In this document: in pieces, positions 6,495 through 7,617 of the stretch
Position numbering within the stretch: position 1 is the first letter of the stretch
How the letters are laid out: the number at the start of each line of letters is the position of its first letter
IMG/VR virus record: IMGVR_UViG_2648501839_000008
Direction: 5' to 3' (one strand)
From: a virus
Lineage: Duplodnaviria; Heunggongvirae; Uroviricota; Caudoviricetes
Length of the DNA: 64,000 nucleotides
Notes under the pieces: generated by a model
The model's database searches: none
Told to the model about the DNA's origin: nothing
The model's input: the letters and a program-made list of their open reading frames with translations, nothing else
Position numbers and translations under genes: made by a program

Positions 6495-6572
6495 CACAGC
6501 GTTGAGCGGTCTGGTTTATGTTAGCGGAGTCTTAATCGAGTTGATTAAAAGGCCAAACCGCTCAACGCTGTG
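6495..6572. other. Long imperfect hairpin (16-bp arms CACAGCGTTGAGCGGT / ACCGCTCAACGCTGTG) directly 3' of tRNA-Ser
   Basis: Inverted repeat read directly; similar hairpins at 6665-6769, 6892-6980, 7494-7617. Confidence 0.4.
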
Positions 6573-6574
6573 TC

Positions 6575-6661
6575 TGGCGGAGAGTAATGGAATCGAACCA
6601 TCATCGTTTGCACAATGGGACGGTTTTCAAGACCGCTTGAGCACCATGCTCCCTACTCTCC
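6575..6661 (-). tRNA. tRNA-Ser (anticodon TGA), type II with long variable arm
   Basis: Hand fold: acceptor GGAGAGT/ACTCTCC, anticodon loop CTTGAAA, T-arm GGTTCGATTCC, encoded CCA. Confidence 0.65.
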
Positions 6662-6891
6662 AGCTATTGTGATGGTCGGTGCTGAACTCCGACACAGGGT
6701 TGTAGCAAGCCCCGCAAAGCGCGCACTACTGTAGTTGCGGCACATCAGCCTGTGCATTCATCACAATGGTAAGATCACTACCTTTCGACCAGTCATTGTG
6801 CACATGAACGACGATTAACCGTAATGATATTATCGTTGTGTTGTGAAGCCAGATGCTTATCTTCTGGTTGCTTCAAAGAGCTGCACTTCCT

Positions 6892-6980
6892 CACAACGGT
6901 AAGAGCACTGGTCTGACTCTATCGATTTACGGCCTTGTGGGTCAGTATCGCCGATTCGCCCAATGCTCTTACCTGTTGTG
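6892..6980. other. Long imperfect hairpin (arms CACAACGGTAAGAGCA / TGCTCTTACCTGTTGTG) directly 3' of tRNA-Thr
   Basis: Inverted repeat read directly. Confidence 0.4.
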
Positions 6981-6981
6981 T

Positions 6982-7057
6982 TGGTGCCGGTTAACGGACT
7001 TGAACCGCTGGCCATTCGCTTACAAAACGACTGCTCTACCAACTGAGCTAAACCGGC
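6982..7057 (-). tRNA. tRNA-Thr (anticodon TGT), tentative
   Basis: Hand fold: acceptor GCCGGTT/AACCGGC, D-arm GCTCAGTTGGTAGAGC, T-arm GGTTCAAGTCC, CCA; anticodon stem has one mismatch. Confidence 0.5.
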
Positions 7058-7061
7058 AATT

Positions 7062-7148
7062 TGGTGGGGAGTGATGGAGTCGAACCACCCGAGTCGCCAT
7101 GACAGTAGATTTACAGTCTACACCGCTACCTCTACGGACTAACTCCCC
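7062..7148 (-). tRNA. tRNA-Tyr (anticodon GTA), long variable arm
   Basis: Hand fold: acceptor GGGGAGT, anticodon loop CTGTAAA, T-arm GGTTCGACTCC, CCA end. Confidence 0.65.
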
Positions 7149-7153
7149 TAAAT

Positions 7154-7228
7154 TGGCGATGGTGGGTGGATTCGAACCACCGACCAGTTGGTTAACAGCC
7201 AACTGCTCTACCGCTGAGCTACACCATC
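7154..7228 (-). tRNA. tRNA-Asn (anticodon GTT)
   Basis: Hand fold: acceptor GATGGTG/CACCATC, D-arm GCTCAGCGGTAGAGC, anticodon loop CTGTTAA, T-arm GGTTCGAATCC, CCA. Confidence 0.7.
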
Positions 7229-7493
7229 AATTCAGCACTGCCAGTATTTATTACTCAACAGTGCCAATCGCGACGGTTTAGTTTCTGCCAGGAAACGCAC
7301 CGCTACTTGCACTTTTCGTTAGTGCCAGACGCTTTCGACTTCGCTCAATAGTAGAAGGCAAAATCTTTAAGTAGATGATGTTTCTGAGGACAGCACCTAC
7401 TTTGTAATTTATACAATGTGATGTATGGAATCATTTGTTGTGAAAACAGGCACCAATGGCAACAGTGGTTAAACCTACACAACAATCCCGTCT

Positions 7494-7617
7494 TCACAAC
7501 GTTGAGGCCACTACTCCGATTGAATGTTTGCCCAACATGTTACATATCAACGCTCGCCGGTATCTCTGTGAATAGAACCTTAGAATTGATAAAAATGTAA
7601 TGGCCTCAACGTTGTGT
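7494..7617. other. Long hairpin (arms CACAACGTTGAGGCCA / TGGCCTCAACGTTGTG, about 90-nt loop)
   Basis: Inverted repeat read directly; arm sequence related to hairpins beside the tRNAs. Confidence 0.35.

Follow-up and report, generated by a model that had tools for sequence, protein, structure and literature searches.

Paralogous RNA hairpins in the tRNA gene region of an SSU5-like phage-plasmid and their relatives in P1-like phages and lambda

Results

A minus-strand tRNA gene array and the long hairpins that accompany it were analysed in a 64,000-nucleotide stretch of viral DNA (IMG/VR record IMGVR_UViG_2648501839_000008, Caudoviricetes; hereafter the window). On comparison with relatives, the hairpins form a homologous family whose pairing is selected as RNA on the tRNA strand, whose closing helix has a nearly constant length and whose members often start at a set distance from a tRNA 3' end. 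The only places where members were found are lambda itself, lambdoid leaders, one Klebsiella siphophage and the tRNA module of SSU5-like and P1-like phage-plasmids. As far as could be found, the family has not been described as such in the literature; it is absent from Rfam 15 and unannotated. The region 6390-8010 is 99.7% identical to a ~109-kb E. coli plasmid by similarity search; phages Cyrano and CMS-2020a are further matches, and Salmonella phage SSU5 is a more distant one. On these matches, the window is taken to be an SSU5-like E. coli phage-plasmid. The coordinates of all features are collected in Table 1.

Table 1 Features of the tRNA-hairpin region of the window.
Feature	Position	Strand	Basis and remarks
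tRNA-Asn (GTT)	7154-7228	-	ARAGORN; Rfam tRNA 75.5 bits
tRNA-Tyr (GTA), class II	7062-7148	-	ARAGORN; Rfam tRNA 41.6 bits
tRNA-Thr (TGT), encoded CCA	6982-7057	-	ARAGORN; Rfam tRNA 66.8 bits
tRNA-Ser (TGA), class II, encoded CCA	6575-6661	-	ARAGORN; best Rfam model tRNA-Sec, 44.8 bits (cut-off 47)
Family hairpin type A	7495-7616	-	Inverted repeat, fold, model R1; ~270 nt upstream of tRNA-Asn
Family hairpin directly 3' of tRNA-Thr	6892-6980	-	Fold, model R1
Family hairpin type B	6495-6572	-	Inverted repeat, fold, model R1
Decayed family member	6762-6840	-	R1 34.1 bits, E 6e-7; absent from the original prediction
tRNA-shaped element (a 'hairpin' at 6665-6769 in the original prediction)	6668-6766	-	Minimum free energy fold, relatives
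Linker hairpin GUGAGGAAG...CUUCAC	6836-6889	-	Between two family members; sequence and fold of 6770-6895
Hairpin GUUGUGAAGACGGG...CCUGUUUUCACAAC	7437-7500	-	Inverted repeat I7; abuts 3' arm of 7495-7616
Further long hairpin, 22-nt arms, 45-nt loop	7688-7776	Preference differs between relatives	Inverted repeat I1; absent from the original prediction
Intrinsic terminator-like hairpin with U tract	6401-6420	-	Sole terminator-like site in 6300-8100

Hairpins in the window

An earlier reading of the same DNA (the original prediction) had placed four extended inverted repeats with related CACAACG-type arms of 9-17 bp among the tRNA genes. Three of these (6495-6572, 6892-6980 and 7495-7616) are real and homologous, and the fourth, at 6665-6769, is not a member of the family. 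The arm lengths had been set too short, as the inverted repeats and folding give the three real hairpins stems of 20 bp. The likeness of the arms was borne out: shared CACARCG... arms are present, and exact matches to CACARCGTTGAG are confined to this region, with none elsewhere in the 64 kb window.

The type A hairpin has 20-nt arms (7495-7514/7597-7616) of 95% complementarity that form a 20-bp stem with one U.G pair around a structured 82-nt loop. Folded as minus-strand RNA it reaches -47.8 kcal/mol, with a z-score of -6.1 against dinucleotide shuffles, the standard used for all z-scores of the three hairpins. In Klebsiella, Salmonella, Enterobacter and Y. pestis, compensatory changes preserve the stem of its orthologues, which also retain the loop motifs CACAGAG, a hairpin AUGUUGGG..AACAU and AAUCGG. 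The type B hairpin likewise has 20-nt arms (6495-6514/6553-6572) of 95% complementarity, closing a loop of 38 nt, and folds to -41.2 kcal/mol (z -9.1); it starts 2 nt past the CCA of tRNA-Ser. Its loop consists of a variable inner hairpin followed by an invariant AAGACUCCGC; across Escherichia, Klebsiella and Salmonella three inner-hairpin sequences occur, always followed by this 10-mer. A tRNA-Lys anticodon-loop mimic, CUUUUAAUCAAC, that had been considered in this loop was dropped, as orthologues do not keep CUUUUAAUCAAC. In the hairpin that follows tRNA-Thr (-38.6 kcal/mol, z -5.9), the stem comprises an outer 6 bp, a bulged A and then 14 bp, with the strands CACAAC, bulged A and GGUAAGAGCAUUGG pairing with CCAGUGCUCUUACC and GUUGUG.

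The decayed member at 6762-6840 carries three mismatches in its 20-bp stem, and relatives possess intact orthologues. One of its arms matches an arm of 6892-6980 (direct repeat D2). The original prediction had offered 'decayed repeat elements' as one possible nature of the hairpins, a description that holds for this copy only; the others are maintained, with orthologues that pair via compensatory changes.

Conservation of the helix and selection as RNA

A covariance model, R1, was built from 22 diverse members, the closing stem being the only structure supplied. Its seeds include the three 20-bp window hairpins, but neither 6762-6840 nor the copies of lambda, ZCKP8, mEp390 and the prophage. 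Across the window R1 finds four members, all in the tRNA region, and each scores 7-25 bits higher on the minus strand than on the plus strand (65.1/40.2 for 6892-6980, 55.2/42.1 for 7495-7616, 53.7/45.4 for 6495-6572 and 34.1/26.8 for 6762-6840). The consensus is a 19-bp closing helix, CACAACGKUNAGNNCAYUG / CAGUGNNCUNAMCGUUGUG, and 100 loci yield 542 matches with both strands counted.

In the 22-sequence alignment 98.8% of cells are paired and both sides have changed in 12 of the 19 pairs; none of 500 shuffles equals the observed pairing and covariation, and slid registers are only 33-55% paired. The 49 distinct R1 matches are 99.0% paired, with both-side changes in 10/19 pairs, figures to be read with the caveats that the sequences are related, that the IMG/VR search pattern forced the outer arms of two types and that alignment A3 was fitted to R1. 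At pair 18 of these 49 elements, U.G occurs in 24, C-G in 21 and U-A in 4, which reads as a typical RNA-level substitution series. The closing helix measures 19-21 bp in 45 of the 49, within total lengths of 67-122 nt. The outer half of the stem (CACAACG / CGUUGUG) and the inner pairs A4-U, A12-U and U19-A are near-invariant, and the middle of the stem covaries freely. Aligning the hairpins for covariation, as the original prediction had proposed, gave covarying pairs and conservation in relatives.

The strand preference is the discriminating evidence for RNA, since a DNA palindrome would likewise appear to covary. The tRNA strand gives the more stable fold in 70 of 85 distinct elements (mean difference -3.9 kcal/mol; Wilcoxon p 1e-11), and the ungapped stems contain 154 G.U pairs versus 66 A.C, an A.C being a G.U on the opposite strand.

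Each paralogue type has its own kind of loop, which is conserved across genera, and the loops hold covarying inner hairpins; these inner structures were read by eye and are less certain, as RNAalifold on MAFFT alignments recovered the closing stem only, because the loops misalign. In a chromosomal lambdoid prophage, one copy combines a loop almost identical to that of 6892-6980 with a stem rewritten by compensatory changes, the U.G being kept.

At the gathering score of Rfam 15, the tRNAs are the only matches in the window, and there is no family for the hairpins. At E<=10 the hairpins give chance-level matches only (miRNA, sX4), as do the P1-like loci, and in the window and in P1-like, Klebsiella and Cronobacter loci no model matches them, those of YrlA/Y RNA, C4, DicF, rtT and ribozymes included. 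The literature on P1 and phage-plasmid tRNA regions and on P1 transcriptomes yielded nothing on these structures.

Phasing of the hairpins to tRNA ends

The four minus-strand tRNAs of the original prediction (Ser-TGA, Thr-TGT, Tyr-GTA and Asn-GTT) were called by ARAGORN at exactly the same coordinates. Three of the four also reach the gathering score of an Rfam tRNA model, and the class II tRNA-Ser falls just below the tRNA-Sec cut-off. After both CCA-encoding tRNAs, Ser and Thr, a hairpin starts 2-3 nt past the CCA; the 3' end of tRNA-Thr reads ...GGCACCA, followed by ACACAACAGG. The same phasing is seen in relatives: in 64 of 137 distinct tRNA 3' contexts the start of a family hairpin is -2, +1 or +2 nt away from the tRNA end called by ARAGORN, the terminal CA being common to tRNA and hairpin where the start is at -2. 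In the other contexts mostly another tRNA follows directly. The usual order of the array is hairpins, Asn(-Tyr)-Thr, one or more hairpins, Ser and a further hairpin; inside the tRNA blocks there are no hairpins, and the spacers are 2-8 nt.

The tRNA content of the module varies between loci (Asn, Tyr, Thr, Ser, Arg-tct, His, Met/Ile-cat) around a constant hairpin framework. Several of these tRNAs are known targets of anticodon nucleases and colicins. In P1, tci genes (tellurite/colicin-resistance-like) lie next to the module tRNAs.

Distribution of the family

When IMG/VR was scanned for CAACGTTGAG...CTCAACGTTG, 83 viral contigs matched. The long hairpins with related arms that these contigs and 18 annotated loci contain lie without exception within the tRNA region, and relatives carry the same elements or variants at the same places. 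Close relatives are mosaic, with breakpoints in the repeated arms: Cyrano is without 6677-6975, and CMS-2020a variants swap the hairpin after tRNA-Thr. Among 5426 complete E. coli genomes, 210 have type A, with one copy per replicon; every copy is on a plasmid, none is on a chromosome, and none is annotated. The type that follows tRNA-Thr was found by the E. coli genome search in 102 genomes, 16 chromosomal places among them. One such chromosomal copy lies between the Q antiterminator and holin genes of a lambdoid prophage, on the strand of the late transcript. In Klebsiella siphophage ZCKP8 the member precedes tRNA-Arg/tRNA-Met by 94 nt and shares their strand. Members without tRNAs occur in lambdoid phage mEp390, in its early-left leader, and in an IMG/VR relative.

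The lambda member (44787-44862, sense strand) is matched by R1 with 44.2 bits (E 3e-11). It lies in the Q-dependent late leader, 8 nt past the U tract of tR' that ends 6S RNA, and its stem follows the family consensus: CACAAC, a bulged A and GGUAAGAGCAUUG pair with CAGUGCUCUUUCC and GUUGUG. Stx phage 933W and the DLP12 prophage of E. coli K-12, examined as cases with RNase III maps or with tRNAs in a lambdoid late leader, have no family member. After the lambda hairpin, at ~44863-44950 (positions 564-650 of locus L107), there is a second widely shared block, AAUUAAGCGAAURCCGGAAGCAGAACCGGAUCACCAAAUGCGUACAGGCGUCAUCGCCGCCCAGC; it also forms the loop of a P1-like family member (L012, 1097-1192) and recurs at 3440-3500 of L106 and in rV5-like phages (Vequintavirinae).

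In P1, P7, D6 and other P1-like phage-plasmids, the module is part of the C1-controlled ban operon and overlaps the annotated open reading frames (ORFs) upl and plp. In P1 (L013, NC_005856) these lie at 1376-1945 on the strand opposite the tRNAs and are almost wholly covered by two family hairpins (1595-1688 and 1828-1914) and a tRNA-shaped element. P1 upl and plp are probably not protein-coding. Sub-threshold Rfam matches to the small RNA STnc100 (33-40 bits, cut-off 47) occur just downstream of the last hairpin in P1-like loci, before tciA (L012, 972-1092; L014, 1294-1414; L013, 1218-1337).

The tRNA-shaped element

The original prediction had counted 6665-6769 as an extended inverted repeat of the same kind as the others. 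It has 9-bp arms and a z-score of -1.4 and draws no match from R1. Its arms are the closing stem of a separate conserved element, with an acceptor-like stem GUGAUG/CAUCAC in the window. The minimum free energy fold of 6668-6766 is cloverleaf-like, yet no better than shuffles (z -1.4). On the 5' side, this second family comprises an acceptor-like stem GUGRUG/CAYCAC, an 'AU' and a 5-bp D-like arm (GCRCA GGCUGA UGYGC); on the 3' side, a T-like arm GYCGG...CCGRC stands directly before the 3' acceptor-like strand. These conserved parts flank five unrelated middles in other phages, for a total of 88-155 nt. Among ten sequences of the element, 98.7% of cells pair and each of the three helices has one covarying pair, modest support for the proposed pairing. 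The element always follows a family hairpin, its first GUG overlapping the last three bases of that hairpin. Further copies occur at 2595-2682 of L104 and ~1500-1600 of L013, and 140-nt variants in L005 and L014. Neither ARAGORN nor Rfam calls the element, and its similarity to the local tRNAs is at shuffle level.

Other features of the region

The tRNAs and hairpins lie within ~1.6 kb, from 8006 to 6383, that hold no credible ORFs according to the ORF list. On one side, this stretch is bordered by a small minus-strand gene that follows a DNA ligase gene and has its end at 8007, and on the other by a convergent 420-aa ORF with its end at 6382. The terminator-like hairpin at 6420-6401, just past the last family hairpin, is the probable end of a tRNA/hairpin transcript. 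The array would be co-transcribed with the upstream operon or transcribed from a weak promoter.

The linker hairpin at 6836-6889 has GUUGUG/CACAAC ends in common with its neighbours and is not significant alone (z -0.1). The hairpin at 7437-7500 is kept in relatives, where the tRNA strand always folds better; it is a linker or a solo-arm remnant. The arms of the hairpin at 7688-7776 differ in sequence from the family, and R1 gives it only 8.4 bits; it may be a distant relative. These arms (GUAACAGGAUGGGCGG) are faintly like those of a P1 upstream hairpin. The long hairpin, which a perfect 11-bp GC-rich hairpin at 7778-7801 adjoins, is retained in SSU5, in pMT1 of Y. pestis and in Klebsiella relatives.

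A leader segment, GGCAGUAGCCUAA..(A)CACCAG, at ~7838-7905 on the minus strand of the window is conserved in P1 (L013, ~2440-2470) and ZCKP8 (L104, 2390-2440). It is followed by a hairpin whose stem differs and whose pairing is kept: CGAGG/CCUCG, ACGGGG/CCCCGU and CAAGG/CCUUG in the window, P1 and ZCKP8, respectively. The segment and its hairpin may constitute another structured element at the start of the module. Nearby are the P1 'dicF-like region' and weak recurrent 'tmRNA_permuted' Rfam matches (E 0.05-1).

Comparison with loci L001, L008, L010 and L015 shows window ~4500-6400, which separates the integrase/repressor genes from the tRNA-hairpin module, to be a cargo hot spot. The window has the 420-aa ORF there, Cyrano glutaredoxin, Enterobacter PhoH, Klebsiella an AbiGi-family protein and Y. 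pestis pMT1 the caf1 (F1 capsule) operon. The tRNAs are gone in pMT1, where 14 nt lie between the end of caf1R and a type A hairpin.

Discussion

Proposed function

The best reading of the elements from sequence and structure is that they are unannotated processing hairpins, or structured spacers, of phage polycistronic RNAs, a kind of feature already known. More specifically, the hairpins would be double-strand-RNA processing and stability modules of the tRNA transcript, an explanation to which we assign even confidence. The untranslated polycistronic minus-strand tRNA transcript would contain RNA spacer modules, each a partly sequence-conserved helix of ~20 bp, or two turns, that closes a variable structured loop. 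The helix would serve as entry site for a double-strand-specific endonuclease, and its cutting would separate the tRNA blocks from flanking RNA. A short trailer would be left past the encoded CCA, to melt off and be trimmed by exonucleases, and the loop domain would be freed as a stem-closed, nuclease-resistant small RNA. A stable stem that starts at CCA+1 would block the 3' exonucleases that finish tRNA ends unless cut first.

The lead candidate for the enzyme is host RNase III, an identification that is plausible and somewhat short of an even prospect. A near-perfect two-turn RNA helix of set length between RNAs that are to be separated is the classical RNase III substrate, as in the T7 early sites, the stems of rRNA operons, the lambda N leader and sib. 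The 20-bp stems of the window and the 19-21 bp of 45/49 distinct elements agree with an RNase III-type helix length of ~20-22 bp. To judge by its title, the paper of Daniels et al. 1988 (Virology 167:568, PMID 2849240; reference 49 of PMC7547250) concerns in vivo RNase III processing sites in the lambda late leader, and the lambda member was probably characterised there.

The original prediction had suggested processing or termination structures, or small structured RNAs. Selection as RNA on the tRNA strand, the phasing to CCA and the ~20-bp helix favour processing structures or small structured RNAs. The single terminator-like site after the array, the place of the P1 module in the ban operon and the lambda member in the late leader also speak for the processing explanation. 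Termination is not supported: no U tract follows any hairpin, and the only terminator-like site, 6420-6401, lies downstream of the array. The hairpins were also rejected as intrinsic terminators on account of their 38-82 nt loops.

Several points weigh against a processing function or restrict it. Palindromic DNA kept by DNA-level mechanisms would also 'covary', so that only the G.U asymmetry discriminates. The hairpin at 7495-7616 and the lambda member are not adjacent to a tRNA, and therefore tRNA 3' maturation cannot be the whole function. A scan of 6300-8100 found no sigma-70 consensus promoter for the array. In lambda, the link to RNase III is drawn from the title of the 1988 paper and the location of the hairpin. 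Finally, the sequence of the outer stem is conserved across paralogues and is not obviously required by RNase III, a hint of another recognition partner. This conservation, the fixed wobble and the conserved loops are unexplained by processing and leave room for a protein partner or for trans-acting small RNAs.

Alternative explanations

One alternative is that the hairpins are primarily genes for stable small RNAs, with the 20-bp helix as a handle that presents trans-acting loop cargoes. These would act as antisense regulators or protein decoys, and the tRNAs and tRNA-shaped element would provide punctuation for RNase P, RNase E and exonucleases. Paralogue types combine the same stem with unrelated loops, each loop type being shared by several genera (AAGACUCCGC in type B, after a covarying inner hairpin; CACAGAG, AUGUUGGG and AAUCGG in type A), the second scaffold likewise occurs with five different middles, and the hairpins are exactly phased to tRNA ends. 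On the other hand, the window contains the complement of the type B 10-mer no more often than expected by chance, and the pMT1 copy is absent from the Y. pestis small RNA catalogue, in which the two pMT1 RNAs sR082 and sR083 map elsewhere. Small-RNA genes, which are compatible with processing, are unlikely as the main explanation. An extension, that the module is a polycistronic array of tRNAs and small RNAs with two scaffolds whose interchangeable RNA cargoes are excised by tRNA-processing enzymes and RNase III, is rather doubtful as things stand.

Another alternative has the hairpins act at the DNA level, as short repeated palindromes that serve as substrates of recombination, homologous or illegitimate, and shuffle tRNA cassettes between phages, in the manner of PeSL (promoter-early stem-loop) elements or miniature inverted-repeat transposable elements (MITEs). 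Breakpoints in the repeated arms of Cyrano and the CMS-2020a variants, the existence of solo arms and a decayed copy, and the 83-90% identity of the module across otherwise unrelated P1-like, SSU5-like, Klebsiella siphophage and lambdoid groups are in keeping with such exchange. Recombination at repeats is expected as a by-product anyway, and a DNA-level role leaves unexplained the strong strand asymmetry of G.U versus A.C, the fixed 19-21 bp helix and the conserved wobble. Nor are the elements dispersed: type A has a single copy per replicon in the 210 E. coli genomes and none on chromosomes, no family member lies elsewhere in the window, and inspection of the sequence revealed no target-site duplications. 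Recombination at the repeated arms, evident in the mosaics and solo arms, is more readily understood as a by-effect of the repeats than as their function, and a primary role in DNA is improbable. Two specific mobile-element candidates were rejected. An element derived from a MITE or an insertion sequence does not fit copies confined to the tRNA module without target duplications and with G.U versus A.C asymmetry. An integron attC site (RYYYAAC...GTTRRRY with extrahelical bases) does not fit the ends CACAACG...CGTTGTG, the near-perfect stems and a cargo of RNA genes rather than promoterless ORFs.

It is quite improbable, too, that the hairpins are passive structural filler that blocks Rho loading, insulates tRNA folding or shields against 3' exonucleases without specific cleavage. 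Filler of this sort would suit the length of the untranslated stretch, the antitermination-controlled leaders of lambda and mEp390 in which hairpins occur, and the high stability of every element. It would not call for a helix held at 19-21 bp, for conservation of the outer-stem sequence, for a wobble that keeps its place or for hairpins that start no more than 2 nt from the CCA. Unless it is cut, a stable hairpin next to the CCA would hamper 3' maturation by exonucleases. The view that the hairpins are remnants of decayed tRNA genes is largely refuted and retains hardly any credibility. One P1 copy has a perfect T-arm (GGGUUCGAAUCCC) beside its 3' strand, and the tRNA-shaped element is in the same cluster; against this, neither ARAGORN nor the tRNA models match the hairpins, even at E<=10, the continuous 20-bp helix is unlike an acceptor stem, and the family is maintained by compensatory change.

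Relation to known systems

Among characterised systems, the lambda late leader holds a true family member, with the same stem consensus as in the window. The lambda copy stands away from any tRNA, whereas the window copies abut tRNA CCA ends as an array. The R0.3-R1.3 signals of T7 and the stems of rRNA operons are paralogous hairpins, or long stems of about two turns, between the units of one transcript; cutting parts the units and leaves stabilising stems. In the T7 sites the loops are small, and single-strand cleavage is directed by an internal loop, in contrast to the near-perfect helices and structured 30-80 nt loops of the window, and we know of no sequence similarity between the T7 RNase III signals and these hairpins.

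Stable non-tRNA RNAs are released from tRNA operons by tRNA-processing nucleases in the case of the T4 species 1 and 2 RNAs, the rtT RNA of E. coli tyrT and 3'ETS-leuZ. Like the window elements, these are structured RNAs in or after a tRNA cluster; unlike them, they do not form a repeated family with a common 20-bp closing helix, and neither the rtT model of Rfam nor related ones match. A structured RNA directly after a viral tRNA, with one cleavage that defines both, is also found in the 'theta' ribozymes resembling that of hepatitis delta virus and in the TMERs (tRNA-pre-miRNA units) of murine gammaherpesvirus 68 (MHV68). The likeness is architectural only, as the window elements have no ribozyme fold or Rfam ribozyme match; bacteria, to our knowledge, have no Dicer pathway. 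T4-type PeSL cassettes resemble the window in placing short repeated stem-loops at the boundaries of mosaic segments in a hyperplastic region. They contain a promoter and flank small ORFs, whereas the window hairpins have no promoter-like sites, show RNA-strand selection and flank tRNAs.

Significance

A processing function, if right, would be conventional; the surprise lies mainly in the span of the family over lambda, P1 and clinically common phage-plasmids, and in its phasing to tRNA ends. The module, unannotated in RefSeq, extends over relatives of Y. pestis pMT1 and S. Typhi pHCM2 and to the lambda late leader and the P1 ban operon. Its recognition would correct annotation, in that P1 plp and upl and several 'hypothetical proteins' overlie RNA structures, and R1 provides a covariance model with which tRNA cassettes can be marked. 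The hairpins also offer a simple testable case of the coupling of RNase III, or another enzyme, to tRNA 3'-end formation. Should the loops prove to be functional cargo, the finding would gain considerably in interest: an array of tRNAs and small RNAs, if true, would endow lambda, P1, SSU5-like phages and the pMT1/pHCM2 relatives with exchangeable trans-acting small RNAs, as regulators or anti-defence decoys. If the favoured processing function holds, one RNA module would shape the maturation of accessory tRNAs in common enterobacterial phage-plasmids.

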